A DNA stretch of 5,615 nucleotides from a virus (IMGVR_UViG_2700989509_000032), one strand, 5' to 3'; positions 1 through 5,615 are shown, numbered from the stretch's first letter. Numbers and translations: made by a program. The notes: generated from the letters alone by a model not told the origin.

Positions 1-655
<655 letters not shown>

Positions 656-663
<8 letters not shown>

Positions 664-880
664 GGTGCACCTCCTGCACATCAGCCATGATAATTTTTCC
701 GGCCTTATCCAGTGCCTGATCGGCTTTTAGCTGCACAAATGCTAAATAATGGGAGATGCATTCTGATTCTCTGGCTGCGTGTTTATGCGCCACACCAGCG
801 ATAGCAGAAATCTCAATAAGTGAATCCATCAGCGTTTTGATAGCGTCTACCGCTGCATCAGGCCATGTTGCATTACACAT
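656..880 (-). CDS. Hypothetical small protein, 74 aa, middle gene of the overlapping operon
   Basis: ATG at 878-880 with AGGAGGTG 5 nt upstream. Start overlaps the stop of the upstream gene (ATGTGTAA) and its own stop overlaps the start of the downstream gene (ATGCATAA). No family recognised. Confidence 0.6.
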
Positions 881-1076
881 GTTCCACCTCCTGGCGAATA
901 CGGGCGGCGAATACCATCACGCAGCCATCAGGAGATTGCTGGCGTGCTTCCTGTTCGCTGGTGGCCTCGATGTGAATTACGCGCGGTTGTGCCGTGCTCA
1001 GGGCGATAAAACGCCAGATGTATTTATTCAGGTTGTGCGAGTCCCGCCCTTGCGGGTGTGTGGTATGATTTCTCAT
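873..1076 (-). CDS. DUF987-like small protein (YeeT/YpjJ-like), 67 aa, first gene of the operon
   Basis: Track ORF 873..1271, trimmed to the internal ATG at 1074-1076 (GAGG 5 nt upstream) because the N-terminal extension is junk-like and would run through the operator region. MRNHTTHP...KYIW...GCVMVFAARIRQE resembles recalled DUF987 proteins (MRIHQQHP...KYRW...GVLAVFAERRKD). Confidence 0.5.
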   Translation of the reverse strand: MRNHTTHPQGRDSHNLNKYIWRFIALSTAQPRVIHIEATSEQEARQQSPDGCVMVFAARIRQEVEHV

Positions 1077-1171
1077 AGCTACCTCGATACTCTTGCTATC
1101 GTTGGTGGTTAGACGCCCTGCATGTGTGCCACCACTGCGGGGCGTTGTCGTTTCTGCACCTTGCATCAACA

Positions 1172-1227
1172 AGGTGTTGAACACCAATTTAAGCCCAGGT
1201 GTTAAACACGTCAAGTGTTGAACACTT
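1172..1227. promoter_or_regulatory. Three palindromic operator-like sites (GGTGTT-N-AACACC type) in the divergent intergenic region, overlapping a candidate promoter for the 1275 gene
   Basis: AGGTGTTGAACACCA at 1172-1186, AGGTGTTAAACACG at 1197-1210 and the perfect palindrome AAGTGTTGAACACTT at 1213-1227. A TTGAAC -35-like hexamer inside site 3 (1218-1223) and a CATACT -10-like hexamer at 1239-1244 lie upstream of the ATG at 1275. Confidence 0.45.
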
Positions 1228-2179
1228 ATTTTTTTCCTGCATACTGCATTTGTTTTTTGTAAGGGGTACACAACATGGCGACAAAAGCAGTAAACGCAAA
1301 ATCACAAACAGTTGCGGCAAGGGTTCCGCATGAAGTTATGAACAATGTTGAGGCGGTAAAAATGCCTGGTGAAAGTACAGGGCAGTTTGTAACAGCAGCA
1401 TTAAAGCGAGAAGTTGAATACCGCCAGCGCCGCAAGGCCAAAGAACAGGAGTAACCATCACCAGCGCCGTGGTGTGAGGAACTACGGTGCATTGTTTTAC
1501 AGGGCTGCGCCATGACCAACAAAGAATCAACCAATACACCATCACCGGCACGGAAAAGACAGCGCAGAAAGATAGCGTACGAGCATGAGTCAAACAGATT
1601 CGCGCCCTGTGCGTTTATCCTTGAGAAATTCCTTAAAGAGTACAGGCGCACAAAAATGGGGTCGCATACCTGGAAAACATCGCGGCATGGCAATGTTAAA
1701 GAGCAGGAATAGCCCACCAGCAAGCCAGCATATTCACCATAATGACCCTCAGTTAAACATAGAGTCATTGGTGCAAAGCTGACACATTGCCCACCAGCCG
1801 CAAATCTGGCATTGTTGGCGATGCGTTCAAGTATGTAGCTTTCCCACTGGCGGCCCTCTGCGGTCGCCTTTGTTTTATCCAGAACGAAATCAGACATCAG
1901 ATTGATCAGCACCTGGCGACCTGACAAAATCGCATCAGTCGCGCCACCAGCAAAATTTTTTGCTTTCCGGACAGTGTGACCAACGACATTTTGCAGCAAA
2001 ATATTCTGCATTTCTGGCGTGCTGTAGTAACGGTGATCAGCGCCTTCACTCTGTGCGACCACAACGCTATAATCTGCCTCGTAGACAGTAAGCAATATGG
2101 CGCAGTAGGCTATTCGTTCACAAAGGCGCTCCGGCAACGGGGCGCTTTCTCTTTTTGTAACGGTCAGAGCGTTACACAT
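1226..2179 (-). CDS. Hypothetical protein translationally coupled to the antirepressor-like gene; only the N-terminal ~150 codons look coding, true 3' end uncertain
   Basis: ATG at 2177-2179 with GGAGG 9 nt upstream, overlapping the stop of the 2172..2972 gene (ATGTGTAA). The first 140 codons have 51 G-initial codons (36%); after about plus coordinate 1750 the frame becomes T1-rich and Cys-rich (antisense-like) but stays open to 1226, running antisense through the 1275..1454 gene. Confidence 0.35.
   Translation of the reverse strand: MCNALTVTKRESAPLPERLCERIAYCAILLTVYEADYSVVVAQSEGADHRYYSTPEMQNILLQNVVGHTVRKAKNFAGGATDAILSGRQVLINLMSDFVLDKTKATAEGRQWESYILERIANNARFAAGGQCVSFAPMTLCLTEGHYGEYAGLLVGYSCSLTLPCRDVFQVCDPIFVRLYSLRNFSRINAQGANLFDSCSYAIFLRCLFRAGDGVLVDSLLVMAQPCKTMHRSSSHHGAGDGYSCSLALRRWRYSTSRFNAAVTNCPVLSPGIFTASTLFITSCGTLAATVCDFAFTAFVAMLCTPYKKQMQYAGKK
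1275..1454 (+). CDS. Small ribbon-helix-helix-like DNA-binding protein, 59 aa (putative regulator or antitoxin-like)
   Basis: ATG at 1275 with AAGGGG 8 nt upstream; translation MATKAVNAKSQTVAARVPHEVMNNVEAVKMPGESTGQFVTAALKREVEYRQRRKAKEQE; TAA at 1452-1454. 26 of 59 codons start with G (coding signature), no Cys, basic C-terminal helix. Below the track length cutoff. Conflicts with the antisense long ORF 1226..2179. Confidence 0.5.
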   Translation: MATKAVNAKSQTVAARVPHEVMNNVEAVKMPGESTGQFVTAALKREVEYRQRRKAKEQE

Positions 2180-2972
2180 GGCTGTTTTCCTCCATGCGAC
2201 GGGCTAACCAACGCTGCGAAAGACGAATTAATTCAGCCTTCCGCTGGTGGTAGTCCTGGCCTAACTCAATCAGCGTGATATTGCTCTGCTCAAGGTAAGA
2301 AAGGTGCTCAAGCTGCAACGTGCTCATGTGGTCGCGTGGTTCGCCTGTAATGCCGTTCGCCAGTGCCCACTGTTTTGCAGTCATGCCACCCAGCACGATA
2401 CGCGCCAGCATGTTCGCTTCCGTGGTGTAGTGGTGCTGGAGTGTGTTTTTACCCAGTTCAGCCCGGTACGCCTCCAGCGCGGCACACATTGGCTTAAAGT
2501 AGCTGGCAACTGTGATACGGGCTTTCAGTTCCCGGCGTAACGCTGCGGAACGAACAGGCGCAACCTTGTGTAGCTCCTCCTCGCATTTGATAAAGTACTG
2601 GCGAACGGCGCGGCCCTGTTCGGTACGTTCGACCATCGCCAGTTCTTTCGCCATGTTCACTGTGATGATGTACTCAAGAGCGGTTTGCTGGCGAGATTTT
2701 GCGCTCACCGGATCGGGTCGGCTCAAATATTCAACAACCTCATAATCCACGCCTTCCGTGAACCCGTATTCTTCAATGCGCCCCTTGATCCACGAACGGA
2801 AAACGCGCCCTACACCTAACGCCTTATGTAACGCTCTGGCGCTAACAATAGTGGTTTCACTCCCGCCAATAACGCCGGAAATAATCGGGATAATTTCGCC
2901 GAAATTTTGCAGATTCTGGTTTTCAGGCCGAACGAAGCCCCGCCCCTGTACGGGCGTTTTTGGAAATTTCAT
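2172..2972 (-). CDS. Phage antirepressor-like protein (AntA/Rha-type N-terminal domain), 266 aa
   Basis: ATG at 2970-2972 with AGGAG 5 nt upstream. N-terminal region ...ARALHKALGVGRVFRSWIKGRIEEYGFTEGVDYEVV... and ...ITVNMAKELAMVERTEQGRAVRQYFIKCEEEL carry the recalled signature of antirepressor (AntA/Rha/Bro-N-like) domains. Family call is from memory. Confidence 0.75.
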   Translation of the reverse strand: MKFPKTPVQGRGFVRPENQNLQNFGEIIPIISGVIGGSETTIVSARALHKALGVGRVFRSWIKGRIEEYGFTEGVDYEVVEYLSRPDPVSAKSRQQTALEYIITVNMAKELAMVERTEQGRAVRQYFIKCEEELHKVAPVRSAALRRELKARITVASYFKPMCAALEAYRAELGKNTLQHHYTTEANMLARIVLGGMTAKQWALANGITGEPRDHMSTLQLEHLSYLEQSNITLIELGQDYHQRKAELIRLSQRWLARRMEENSHV

Positions 2973-3023
2973 AAAAACTCCTGCTATCGAATTAAGTTAC
3001 TTTTATTTGCTGGTGGATAGCTG

Positions 3024-3038
3024 GGGGCAATAGCCCCG
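3024..3038. other. Short GC stem-loop (GGGGC-AATA-GCCCC) in the alpA/antirepressor intergenic gap
   Basis: 5-bp perfect stem with a 4-nt loop, but no adjacent U-run on either strand, so not a canonical intrinsic terminator. Confidence 0.25.
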
Positions 3039-3049
3039 TAGCCATTTAA

Positions 3050-3247
3050 TCAGGTAGCTGTTCCGCGTGATTCCGCAATACGCTGATTAATCCACTCGTC
3101 AATTTCACTCTCAACGAAAGCAATAGCTCGCGAGCCAATTTTAACTGATGCAGGAAATTTACCTTGCCCCATAAGGCGATAAATCCATGCCTTGCTATAT
3201 CCAGTTCTACGCTGAACTTCTGTTAAACGAATAAGCGTATTTGACAT
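3050..3247 (-). CDS. alpA: AlpA/Vis-family prophage transcriptional regulator / excisionase-like HTH protein, 65 aa
   Basis: ATG at 3245-3247 with GAGG 7 nt upstream. MSNTLIRLTEVQRRTGYSKAWIYRLMGQGKFPASVKIGSRAIAFVESEIDEWINQRIAESRGTAT carries the AlpA-family hallmark E-x-EIDEW-x-x-QR and an HTH (TGYSKAWIYRLM). Confidence 0.9.
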   Translation of the reverse strand: MSNTLIRLTEVQRRTGYSKAWIYRLMGQGKFPASVKIGSRAIAFVESEIDEWINQRIAESRGTAT

Positions 3248-3315
3248 ATATTTACCTCATAACGTCTACTCAATTTGACGAGGTAATCATGGCACAGAAA
3301 TAACGAATATTTTCA

Positions 3316-3460
3316 TACCCTCAGGCCTAATGGTTACCGGAAGGAAATCTACCCTAAGGGTGATGGTAATCGGGAGGAAATCTACCCTAAGGGTGATGGT
3401 AAAATTGACGGGGAAGATAAAAAAATACCCTCAGGGTAACAGTAAATCACCCTCAGGGTA
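3316..3460. promoter_or_regulatory. Cluster of four complete and one partial ACCCT-N-AGGGT palindromes upstream of alpA; candidate operator or iteron array
   Basis: ACCCTAAGGGT at 3351-3361 and 3383-3393, TACCCTCAGGGTA at 3426-3438, ACCCTCAGGGT at 3449-3459, plus half-site TACCCTCAGG at 3316-3325. All lie in the 227-bp gap between the alpA start (3247) and the stop of the 3475..4272 gene. Confidence 0.5.
3339..3402. repeat. Tandem direct repeat, 2 x 32 bp, each unit containing an ACCCTAAGGGT palindrome
   Basis: 3339-3370 GGAAGGAAATCTACCCTAAGGGTGATGGTAAT and 3371-3402 CGGGAGGAAATCTACCCTAAGGGTGATGGTAA are near-identical head-to-tail copies. Confidence 0.85.
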
Positions 3461-3474
3461 TGCGGTATGGTGCG

Positions 3475-4272
3475 TTAATCCGGCTTTGCGTTCTTTTGGC
3501 TGTTGTCTCGGTTAATAGGGCAGGCAGTCCTCTCTATGAGCGTTGCAAGTGCATTACTTGCCCCCCACTGCTTAAGCTCCCTGGTTATCGCTTCTTGATT
3601 TCCCCTGGTGGCAAAATCATTTTCTGGATCGTAATTGGCCCACTCTCTGTTTCTAATCTCAATAGCCTTAGCTAATGGGTCTTTATCCCAGTATTTATAT
3701 AAGTGTATCGGGCGCTCTTGCTCTAACTGCTCTATCCTTGCCCTTAACTCTGCGTTTTCTTTTTCCAGCATTGCGATTTGGGATAATAAATCATCCTCTG
3801 TACGCAACTCTTTCTTTTCAATATCGCGTCCTTGTGCCTCGTCATTTTCAGAAGAGTTAGCGCCTTCCAGCTTCGTTAACGCGTCAAGGACATCGGGAAA
3901 AATTGAGAAAATTTCACCCCTTATAAATCCAATGTTCTCAAATTCGGGATCTTCCCAATAACCGGACACCAGAAAACCATTTTCATCCCTCTCACCAGGT
4001 AAACAACCACGTTTCCGAACCGCATTCAGATTTCTATAAAGAACATCATTATCAAATTCATCCCGATACGGGTTACAAAAAGATTCCAACAGCTTAAATT
4101 CATTTACTGTGTACAGGCGGATATGTTCTCCGCTTATTCTCCTGAGTATCCAAGTTATGACATCTGAAACATCATAATCATCACCAGCGACCTTAAGCAC
4201 GACCTCAAGAAATTCACGTAAAGAAATAAAATCTTTTTTGTATTCGTTTAATTCGGCATGAATATCAATCAT
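3475..4272 (-). CDS. Hypothetical protein, 265 aa, low-GC orphan gene between integrase and alpA; acidic with a central coiled-coil segment
   Basis: Track ORF 3475..4278 begins with GTG; the ATG two codons in (4270-4272) is preferred because GAGG lies 7 nt upstream (MIDIHAELNEYKKDF...). Sampled 60-bp blocks are about 33-40% GC against about 55-60% in int and the antirepressor gene. Coiled-coil-like LLSQIAMLEKENAELRARIEQLEQERP and an acidic linker. No family recognised. Confidence 0.7.
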   Translation of the reverse strand: MIDIHAELNEYKKDFISLREFLEVVLKVAGDDYDVSDVITWILRRISGEHIRLYTVNEFKLLESFCNPYRDEFDNDVLYRNLNAVRKRGCLPGERDENGFLVSGYWEDPEFENIGFIRGEIFSIFPDVLDALTKLEGANSSENDEAQGRDIEKKELRTEDDLLSQIAMLEKENAELRARIEQLEQERPIHLYKYWDKDPLAKAIEIRNREWANYDPENDFATRGNQEAITRELKQWGASNALATLIERTACPINRDNSQKNAKPD

Positions 4273-4400
4273 ACGCACACCTCAGCGTCCTCTACTGTAG
4301 TGGCTGTACCAGTCCGTCGAGGTGTACGGATTTTCGGGAGCGACCCTAGACACAGCCTTTTCTTTCGTCGCTCAAAGTCTACTACTGTATACTCAACCAG

Positions 4401-5615
4401 TCACCCGCATTTTCCGAACTCACCATGCACCACATTTCCGCCATGCTCGAGCGAATCCATATAATCAGCGTACCACTGAAGCATTTCCCGCCGCCCATCC
4501 AGATATTGCGCATGGTTGTATGTGCCACGAATTGAGTTTTTATCGACGTGCGCAAGCTGTGTCTCTATCCACGCGGTGTTATAGCCCTGCTCATGCAAAA
4601 TGGTGCTCATAGTGTGCCGGAAGCCATGACCAGTAACCTTTCCGTTATAGCCGATGCGTTTAAATACTTGGTTTATGCTAGCCTCGCTCATTGTTTTCCT
4701 TGGATCATTACGGCCGGGAAACATAAGCGGATAATTGCCAGTTAGTTCTTTAATCTGCCCAATAAGCGAAAGAGCCTGCTCAGACAAAGGCACTACATGA
4801 GGGCGACGCATTTTCATCCGTGAAGCAGGTATCTCCCAGATAGCCTTGTTGAGATCGATTTCATCCCATAATGCACCGCGCAGTTCGCCAGTCCGCAAAC
4901 CGGTGATAATCAGTAAACGAGCCGCCATAACAACCAATGCACTTCCTGAGTAACTGGACAATGCCTTGAAAAAATCAGGTAATTCTTTGGCTGTGAGGAA
5001 AGGATAATGATTAGATTCATGACCTTGCATCGCGCTGGTGAGATCCGGTGCAGGGTTATACTCAGCACGTCCAGTGACAATTGCATAGCGGAAAACTTCC
5101 CCACATCGCTGCCTCACTTTTTTGGCTTTTTCGGTAGCACCGCGCCCCTCGATGCGCCGCAGCACATTCAGCAGTTCAAGTGGTTTGATTTCGGCGATTG
5201 GTTTTTTGCCAATGTAAGGGAACACATCTTTGTTGAAGGCTTCGAGGATGTCTGAAGCATAACCAGCAGACCATTTTTTTAATTTGCTGCTGTGCCACTC
5301 AAGGGCAATATCTTTGAAGGTGTTGTTTAACTGCGTTTCCCGGGCAATCTTTTCCTCTCGTTTCGCTTCCATCGGATCGATACCCCCAGCGATACCCCTT
5401 TTAGCTTCTTCACGTTTTGCACGAGCATCAGCCAAGGTAACTTCAGGATACACACCTAGTGCTAACAGCTTCTCTTTACCAGCTACACGATACTTGAAGC
5501 GCCAATATTTTCCTCCACTAGGTTTTACCAAGAGATACAGACCACCACCATCAGCCAGCTTGTAAGCCTTCTCTTTTGGCTTGGCAGTGTCTATTTGACG
5601 GGCATTGAGTTTCAC
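4401..5615 (-). CDS. int: P4-type tyrosine recombinase (integrase), 404 codons in window; N-terminus at the window edge and possibly incomplete
   Basis: N-terminal KPKEKAYKLADGGGLYLLVKPSGGKYWRFKYR is the hallmark of the P4-integrase arm-binding domain. Catalytic-domain motifs are present: HxxR (GHGFRHTMSTIL) and the tyrosine region (RGTYNHAQY). First in-window codon is GTG at 5613-5615, so the true start may be just outside. Confidence 0.9.
   Translation of the reverse strand: MKLNARQIDTAKPKEKAYKLADGGGLYLLVKPSGGKYWRFKYRVAGKEKLLALGVYPEVTLADARAKREEAKRGIAGGIDPMEAKREEKIARETQLNNTFKDIALEWHSSKLKKWSAGYASDILEAFNKDVFPYIGKKPIAEIKPLELLNVLRRIEGRGATEKAKKVRQRCGEVFRYAIVTGRAEYNPAPDLTSAMQGHESNHYPFLTAKELPDFFKALSSYSGSALVVMAARLLIITGLRTGELRGALWDEIDLNKAIWEIPASRMKMRRPHVVPLSEQALSLIGQIKELTGNYPLMFPGRNDPRKTMSEASINQVFKRIGYNGKVTGHGFRHTMSTILHEQGYNTAWIETQLAHVDKNSIRGTYNHAQYLDGRREMLQWYADYMDSLEHGGNVVHGEFGKCG

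Follow-up and report, generated by a model that had tools for sequence, protein, structure and literature searches.

Regulators of phage satellites

In Staphylococcus aureus pathogenicity islands (SaPIs) and in the phage-inducible chromosomal islands (PICIs) of Gram-positive bacteria, the induction switch is gated by a satellite regulator encoded near the integrase gene (int), Stl and Rpr, respectively. These regulators combine one conserved DNA-binding module with one highly divergent module that reads the helper phage, differ in allele between otherwise similar islands, and bind operators from which a helper protein releases them. In PICIs of Gram-negative bacteria, AlpA serves as the master activator of the satellite and activates its own promoter (PMC6092414, PMC11773190); the global repressor has been described as 'unclear', and an as yet unidentified factor of the helper turns alpA on (PMC6092414). 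Here, a stretch of 5,615 nucleotides (nt) from the virus IMGVR_UViG_2700989509_000032 (the window) is described, which carries, between a P4-type int and alpA, a gene for a protein of 265 amino acids (aa), hereafter X (3475..4272, minus strand). The element is a PICI-type phage satellite of Escherichia coli inserted at tRNA-Thr/proA, and we lean slightly towards X being a regulator that contains a coiled coil and acts in a sequence-specific manner on the alpA promoter. X is probably part of the regulatory backbone of the satellite and not cargo.

The logic proposed for X resembles that of Stl and Rpr, as a satellite regulator near int would gate the induction switch, one conserved and possibly DNA-binding module is joined to one highly divergent module that may read the helper, and allelic diversity is seen between otherwise similar islands. 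Yet there is no relation in sequence or fold. Unlike Stl and Rpr, X has no XRE/HTH_3-type helix-turn-helix (HTH) domain (HTH_3, HTH_31 or related) in Pfam, and its domain order is reversed, with the variable part N-terminal and the conserved part C-terminal. Furthermore, Stl and Rpr are transcribed divergently from the induction operon (str/xis), whereas X shares its direction of transcription with alpA and would act upstream of the activator AlpA, which the Gram-positive elements lack. A counterpart in X of their operator binding and helper-protein release is proposed from the co-variation of repeats and C-terminal domain described below.

Lambdoid immunity cassettes are also comparable, since a protein and its adjacent set of repeats or operators are swapped as a unit within a conserved background, here between the islands of E. 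coli STEC276 (locus L001) and APEC E123 (L004). However, X has no CI/Cro homology, and its arrays are phased and lie upstream of one promoter, in contrast to a tripartite OL/OR arrangement. Proteins of the AlpA/Vis/HTH_17 group share the locus and regulatory region of X and are small satellite-specific induction regulators, as X would be, yet their architecture is unrelated: X does not match Phage_AlpA or HTH_17 (PF05930, PF12728), whereas the neighbouring alpA does (E 2e-19), and the repeat motif beside X does not track the AlpA sequence. Finally, the Bro-N/KilA-N/AntA network (PMC10111431) likewise exchanges N- and C-terminal modules extensively among its alleles and occurs in the same islands, where antA follows alpA; however, X is placed in the 'integration zone' and outside the 'Bro zone', and none of the 57 X-family members scanned has a Bro-N, KilA-N, AntA, ANT, ORF6C or similar network domain. 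The family, its C-terminal domain, the candidate operator motif and the link to alpA are absent from the curated libraries and literature searched, and the PICI literature searched describes no gene between int and alpA.

A gene family linked to alpA

X is a real gene, since it has homologues in several genera and its C-terminal domain shows a ratio of nonsynonymous to synonymous substitution rates (dN/dS) of 0.15-0.19. The original prediction, made from the DNA sequence alone, had placed an open reading frame (ORF) with a plausible Shine-Dalgarno (SD) sequence at 3475..4272, between a P4-type int and alpA. The ORF is confirmed on the minus strand with an ATG start, GAGG is found 5 nt upstream of the ATG, and the Pfam domains of both neighbours bear out the position. 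An alternative GTG start two codons upstream (4278) is possible, yet disfavoured, as all homologues begin with MIDI, MVDI or MLDI.

An exhaustive HMMER search gave 69 representative clusters of X homologues, and a tblastn search against 50,697 phage genomes gave none; judged from these collections, the family appears to be known only from phage satellites. In 46 of 46 loci encoding the conserved C-terminal domain (C-domain), the gene immediately upstream of alpA belongs to the X family, has the same orientation and lies 70-260 bp away; the sources of these loci are E. coli, Salmonella, Kluyvera, Pantoea, Xenorhabdus, Photorhabdus, Orbaceae, IMG/VR contigs and metagenomes. Mannheimia and two contigs with terminase genes show this arrangement as well, giving 49 of 49 loci, distributed over Enterobacterales, Orbaceae, Pasteurellaceae and unassigned assemblies. 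The integrases partnering X show identities of 100, 66, 44 and 38%, the lowest being about 35%, and an adjacent integrase is absent in some loci. The Mannheimia order is int-ParE-HTH-SocA_Panacea-...-X-alpA-antA, with cargo between int and X, and in the two terminase contigs (L053 and L054) it is terS-terL-...-X-alpA, with no integrase adjacent. Among E. coli genomes, the alpA-plus-spacer allele is found in 164 and X in 148, compared to 1059 with related integrases. From this gene order, X appears to belong with alpA rather than with int.

As originally predicted, the slot is variable, and in a syntenic comparison the region downstream of int is mosaic among related islands. The slot is empty in EcCIMP1 and EcCICFT073, is occupied by a DUF6387 gene without similarity to X in L003, and in Mannheimia the region holds toxin-antitoxin/SocA genes. 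In L004, where int is 99.8% and alpA 97% identical to the window and all in between is replaced, the slot encodes a different protein of 238 aa, X' (L004 5454-6170, minus strand). The C-terminus of X' is a divergent, remote homologue of the X C-domain (hhalign probability 88%) and finishes in a basic tail, RIGRRPKKQKVK. Islands of Pectobacterium and Proteus encode yet another group, the Y-type proteins, which occupy the same slot as X upstream of alpA and have a C-domain unrelated to that of X, with the motif FAGKDTALMxIAGL...GGKxNKSAIA. The gene yfjH, located between intA and alpA in CP4-57 of K-12, was considered as a relative of X and rejected, as it lies on the opposite strand and reaches an hhalign probability of 0.15%.

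A variable slot beside int could also hold independently acquired cargo, and the original prediction had read X as such, namely as a single-gene anti-phage or abortive-infection protein in an int-adjacent hotspot. Phage satellites are known carriers of defence genes, and the mosaic region downstream of int holds DUF6387, ParE and SocA_Panacea genes in some islands. The N-terminal part of X is hypervariable, like many immune sensors, and the GC content of the gene is slightly low. However, we regard cargo as an improbable reading: the family is locked to alpA, not int, over Enterobacterales, Orbaceae and Pasteurellaceae, the cargo of Mannheimia lies upstream of X, and a dedicated repeat array stands between X and alpA. 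Indeed, with 46 of 46 loci and three more showing this arrangement, the gene comes close to being constant at this position in related islands, and the defence reading finds no support. The base composition adds little to it. The earlier contrast of 33-40% GC with flanks of 55-60% was overstated, as no flank attains 55-60%; the values are 41.4% for X, 47.7% for int, 42.9% for alpA, 53.3% for antA, 42.7% and 52.3% for the two spacers and 47.8% for the window, and 60-nt blocks of the X ORF vary between 28 and 52%. AlpA is encoded by a gene as AT-rich as X (GC at third codon positions 0.30 for alpA and 0.39 for X), and since the 6-point dip is thus common to X and the neighbouring regulator, it argues only weakly for the separate acquisition that had been read from it.

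Domain organization and selection

The protein was originally sketched as an N-terminal region, an acidic linker and a coiled-coil stretch before a C-terminal region; this sketch is right, and the C-domain proves small and helical. In the predicted model, the N-domain (residues 1-135; 3868..4272, minus strand, as are the following) has a confidence (predicted local distance difference test, pLDDT) of about 88, and its residues 1-65 adopt a winged-helix-like topology; it is proposed as a sensor or partner-binding module. An acidic disordered linker follows (residues 136-158; 3799..3867; net charge -3, pLDDT 33-43), leading into the coiled coil (residues 159-186; 3715..3798), a single long helix with pLDDT >90 that is presumed to serve dimerisation and that gives sub-threshold DivIC/bZIP matches in Pfam as well as coiled-coil matches in the PDB. 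The conserved C-domain (residues 187-256; 3505..3714; pLDDT 85), proposed to bind DNA, consists of four short helices and then an invariant ...AIExVACPIxR end. Its motif reads PILLxxYRxDDPLxxAIxIRNxEWxNYDP...AxAIExVACPIxR, and D, R, W, A, I, E, C, P and R residues are invariant in an alignment of 26 sequences.

The C-domain of ~70 aa is present in about 90 of the 105 collected proteins, always at the very C-terminus, with the coiled coil before it, and the sequence N-terminal to the coiled coil is hypervariable, with family lengths of 109-515 aa. Minimal members of about 100-120 aa consist of the coiled coil and C-domain only; one protein search that used the C-domain profile yielded no more than 13 short members. 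Conversely, the X-type N-domain is also found fused to the unrelated Y-type C-domain (P0069/82/84/87/100). When X is compared with an E. coli allele, dN/dS is 0.77 for the N-domain and 0.15-0.19 for the C-domain, and the synonymous rate (dS) is 0.33 for the N-domain and 1.8-2.0 for the C-domain. Since dS differs so sharply between the parts, X is mosaic, its N- and C-terminal parts meeting at a junction. The C-domain is under strong purifying selection, and the N-domain is fast-evolving and exchangeable. In two loci, X is split into two ORFs, which are adjacent in Kluyvera (L006 5417-6213; 106 and 152 aa) and overlapping in Xenorhabdus (L008 5520-6201; 154 and 84 aa); pseudogenes or sequencing errors could account for this, or the two-gene forms could be genuine.

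In agreement with the original prediction, no curated family matches X. Scans of X with Pfam, NCBIfam, PADLOC and PHROG gave coiled-coil noise and no informative match, as did Pfam for X together with 56 relatives, and PADLOC-DB v2 gave 0 families at E <= 0.1. Sequence profiles of the PDB, searched with the whole protein and with the C-domain, matched nothing except coiled coils, structure comparison found neither a PDB nor a viral fold match for X, and the C-domain has no PDB match by sequence or by fold. None of the effector-type domains sought by Pfam (nuclease, NADase, pore, kinase or ATPase) is present in X or its 56 relatives, and X itself has no enzymatic, pore-forming or nucleotide-binding domain in Pfam. 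These absences, including that of a PADLOC match, also tell against a defence function, as do the minimal members with just a coiled coil and a 70-aa domain. Taken together, the lock to alpA, the lack of an effector domain, the minimal coiled-coil/C-domain forms and the repeats that change with the C-domain type argue for regulation and not for abortive infection.

Palindrome arrays in front of the alpA promoter

The spacer between X and alpA (3248-3474) contains all four exact copies of ACCCTnAGGGT in the window, where 0.09 would be expected, and next to the inferred alpA promoter stands a fifth site, which is degenerate. The operator-like palindromes are, in the direction of transcription, O1 (3448..3460; TACCCTGAGGGTG on the gene strand), O2 (3426..3438; TACCCTGAGGGTA), O3 (3383..3395) and O4 (3350..3362), the latter two both CACCCTTAGGGTA and part of a 33-bp tandem repeat, followed by the promoter-proximal site O5 (3316..3328; AGGCCTGAGGGTA). 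No further site is found in 32.8 kb of L001, even with 2 mismatches. Across 25 distinct X-type spacers, TACCCTnAGGGTA palindromes number 67 in 5.4 kb of spacer, the 221.7 kb of DNA around them contain 0, and half-sites reach a density of 23 per kb in the spacers compared to 0.28 per kb around them. Arrays comprise 3-9 phased palindromes of 13 bp upstream of a single promoter. The spacings from centre to centre are mostly 22, 33, 42-44 and 54-55 bp, and also 29 and 31; since most lie near multiples of 11 bp, most sites would face one side of the helix. A literature search for the palindrome sequences returned nothing relevant.

Copy number also varies between close relatives, as the 33-bp tandem repeat (3330-3395), with one palindrome per unit, occurs in 1, 2 or 3 copies in near-identical islands, and a 22-bp unit with O1 is absent from L021 and L033. 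In the EcCIMP1-type spacer of L005, which lacks X, one AGGGTA-GCTC-TACCCT element with oppositely arranged half-sites lies ~176 bp upstream of alpA and could be a relic or chance.

In every locus, the repeats stop at the -35 region of alpA. Loci of Kluyvera, Pantoea, Salmonella and others retain the proximal element CCTnAGGGTATGA, and an extended -10 resembling TGnCATCAT is likewise kept across genera (TGCCATCAT / TGCAATGAT in L006, L007 and L017). In the window, TGcCATGAT (3286..3294, minus strand) is the probable extended -10 of alpA, accompanied by a poor -35 region; a strict sigma-70 scan found no alpA promoter. Counted from the transcription start that this element would set, the centre of O5 lies at about -43.

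Downstream of X, O1 and O2 pair in the transcript and are followed by U7, forming an intrinsic terminator (3418..3461, minus strand; -24.8 kcal/mol, z -4.9) that lies 14 nt after the X stop codon and is matched by 0 of 200 shuffles; a sequence scan also flagged terminator-like sites. The pair may thus act both as a terminator in RNA and as operators in DNA. The palindromes were also considered as mere terminators, which accounts for O1 and O2 only.

Being phased and variable in copy number, the repeats are reminiscent of iterons or arm-type sites, and X adjoins int and the excisionase-like AlpA/HTH_17 protein. X might accordingly be an architectural, recombination or replication factor, such as an excision-directionality helper or an iteron-binding initiator, with the repeats as its assembly site. 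We consider this very improbable. The repeats lie >2 kb from the attachment (att) core at tRNA-Thr and always abut the alpA promoter, on which grounds a role as integrase arm sites was also rejected; they end at the alpA -35 region wherever they occur, and in L053 and L054 X stands beside alpA with no integrase adjacent. Moreover, PICI origins map downstream of pri (PMC6092414).

Repeat class and C-domain class in natural swaps

Natural swaps separate the possible partners of the repeats. In L004, AlpA is 97% identical (here and below relative to the AlpA of the window), the C-domain is the divergent one of X', and the spacer (5199-5453) contains no ACCCT and instead ATGGT(G/A)-type repeats; homology with the window breaks 21 bp before the alpA ATG. 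In the Y-type islands, L055 combines an AlpA of 77% identity with an N-domain homologous to that of X and has 6 direct ACTTCC repeats and no ACCCT, and L056 combines an AlpA of 68% identity with 3 such repeats, again without ACCCT. Conversely, L012 has an AlpA of only 28-34% identity together with an X-type C-domain, and TACCGTGAGGGTA is kept. The two terminase contigs are near-identical in the AlpA-like N-terminal sequence and the proximal spacer, and they differ in both C-domain and distal repeats. In the Orbaceae type, where AlpA identity is low or undetectable, an Orbaceae-type C-domain goes with ACTATnATAGT palindromes. Finally, the palindrome motif is unchanged whether the N-domain is of type A, of another type, or absent. 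Across these swaps, the co-variation is directly observed, and the repeat class tracks the C-domain class, not AlpA and not the N-domain. In the alpA spacers of the Y-type islands (L055 4254-4547, L056 4275-4483), direct ACTTCCA(AA) repeats, 3-8 in number, all lie on one strand, and Y-type protein and ACTTCC repeats together look like a second class of regulator and operator.

This pattern could have a simpler origin, as the DNA coding for the C-domain adjoins the spacer and linkage within one recombination cassette could alone yield the co-variation. However, the motif persists over deep divergence and the rest of the spacer does not, which argues against pure linkage. Such linkage would also leave room for X as a protein-binding adaptor, which as an anti-activator would hold AlpA or as an acidic interference factor would bind a helper-phage protein, with the palindromes bound by AlpA or by a host or helper factor. 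X is strongly acidic (isoelectric point, pI, 4.7; net charge -19) and AlpA basic (pI 10.1), X has no recognisable DNA-binding fold, and autoactivation by AlpA is documented (PMC6092414, PMC11773190). Yet the C-domain type does not follow the AlpA type, as X-type C-domains occur with AlpA proteins that are 28-100% identical and Y-type or divergent C-domains with those that are 68-97% identical, and AlpA with the same HTH segment, RTGYSKAW, stands behind three repeat types. In addition, phased palindrome arrays suit a dimeric binder, whereas AlpA has 65 aa and no dimerisation module. While AlpA as the binder of the palindromes is judged unlikely from the swaps, the adaptor as a whole is an unlikely explanation, though one to be kept in mind.

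The int-alpA RNA as a probable leader

The Rfam family RF02996 is listed as a small RNA (sRNA) named for its location between int and alpA, and here its place is between int and the slot gene. The window has a bona fide match to it at 4356..4289 (4289..4356, minus strand) with 45.5 bits in cmscan, compared to a gathering score of 35.8, over the full length of the model (positions 1-71) and with the stems kept. The consensus has a three-stem structure, and its U7 tail is replaced by CCACUAC in the window. The match ends 16 nt before the X start codon. In 11 other loci, RF02996 is likewise found just upstream of the slot gene, be it X, Y-type or DUF6387, at 14-16 nt where coordinates were checked. 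Given that it precedes whichever gene fills the slot, the int-alpA RNA is probably the leader of that gene, or otherwise acts on it in cis, and not a free sRNA. Its second hairpin has the loop CACCUC, the complement of the X SD sequence GAGGUG (inverted repeat 4271-4283/4319-4331), and in a longer alternative fold the two pair and the SD is sequestered. With z -1.3 this fold is not significant, and as it is not distinguished statistically, it serves as a lead only.

A proposed model for the control of alpA

The gene, its domain layout and selection pattern, the synteny, the repeat arrays and their co-variation with the C-domain type are observed directly, and from them we infer for X that it binds DNA, that the alpA promoter is its target, that its regulation has a given sign and that it has a sensing role. 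X would owe its expression to the int side, with the int-alpA RNA leader in front of it, and its transcript would be ended before alpA by the O1/O2 terminator. The protein would probably dimerise by its coiled coil, and the C-domain would bind the in-phase palindromes between the X stop codon and the alpA promoter. Occupancy by X would then set whether alpA (3050..3247, minus strand; Pfam Phage_AlpA), the master activator of excision and replication and presumed target of X, is transcribed. The N-domain would provide the input, its most plausible role being that of a receptor that recognises a helper-phage protein, and could thereby couple induction of the satellite to a particular helper. Repression relieved by the helper, as with Stl, is modestly favoured over helper-dependent activation because of the Stl analogy and because the terminator isolates alpA from upstream transcription. 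Activation is considered because of the proximal site at -43 and the poor -35 region; a centre at about -43 is a position typical of activators.

Several points weigh against X as a DNA-binding regulator of alpA. Besides the lack of a recognisable DNA-binding fold and the possible linkage of C-domain and spacer, the C-domain is weakly basic within a very acidic protein, and the O1/O2 terminator by itself accounts for two of the five sites. At its position, O5 would suit an activator. Autoactivation implies that AlpA also binds somewhere in the region. Moreover, many related satellites function without X, and both E. coli PICIs that have been studied lack it.

Other features of the island

Positions 382-5615 of the window are 99.9% identical to E. 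coli STEC276, where the island of ~15 kb is inserted at tRNA-Thr, adjoining proA, and includes genes for a primase, ProQ/FinO and PerC and no structural phage genes. EcCIMP1 is related to it, with the same insertion site and an integrase 97% identical (PMC11773190). In the window, int, X, alpA and antA all lie on the minus strand. The P4-type tyrosine integrase (4401..5615) matches Arm-DNA-bind_3, Phage_int_M and Phage_integrase in Pfam, with tRNA-Thr/proA adjoining in L001, and the AntA-family gene antA (2172..2972; Pfam AntA match) is next after alpA. Beyond antA, YlcI/YnfO and Icd-like genes are found farther along the window.

Between the YlcI/YnfO gene and antA, a region of ~700 bp (1455-2171) is annotated in RefSeq with only a 66-aa hypothetical ORF. 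A 317-aa minus-strand ORF in it has no homologue in any library and is probably spurious. A strong skew of A over T reaches 0.41 at 1401-1600. The Hfq-binding sRNA isrC (RF01387) matches window positions 5-127 on the minus strand (150 bits, E 1e-37), and L001 has no counterpart of window positions 1-195. Compared to STEC276, the window lacks ~66-77 bp (L001 12830-12906), which merges two small hypothetical genes into one ORF of 171 aa (166-681, minus strand). C4/isrK immunity-RNA motifs occur in related islands, where they lie downstream of alpA by a few genes; none was detected in the window at E <= 1.

Implications for Gram-negative satellites

More broadly, X, X' and the Y-type proteins might represent the helper-sensing master switch of many Gram-negative satellites, a possibility that we consider less likely than not. 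Here, a coiled-coil dimer would sit on phased operators by means of a DNA-binding domain of ~70 aa not seen before and hold the alpA promoter off, a hypervariable N-terminal receptor would be triggered by a specific protein of the helper, and the int-alpA RNA, as a translational or termination leader, would set the level. As a satellite master-switch regulator, X would be known in kind, with parts unrelated to known ones. In addition, a new small domain is described together with a defined candidate DNA motif, and an orphan Rfam motif gains a likely job as leader of the slot gene. The family also calls for caution, as int-adjacent genes of satellites should not automatically be labelled defence cargo. 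Finally, how Gram-negative PICIs sense the helper phage is a standing question on which X bears: the family offers a concrete candidate for the helper sensor in many satellites and may also explain their helper specificity.

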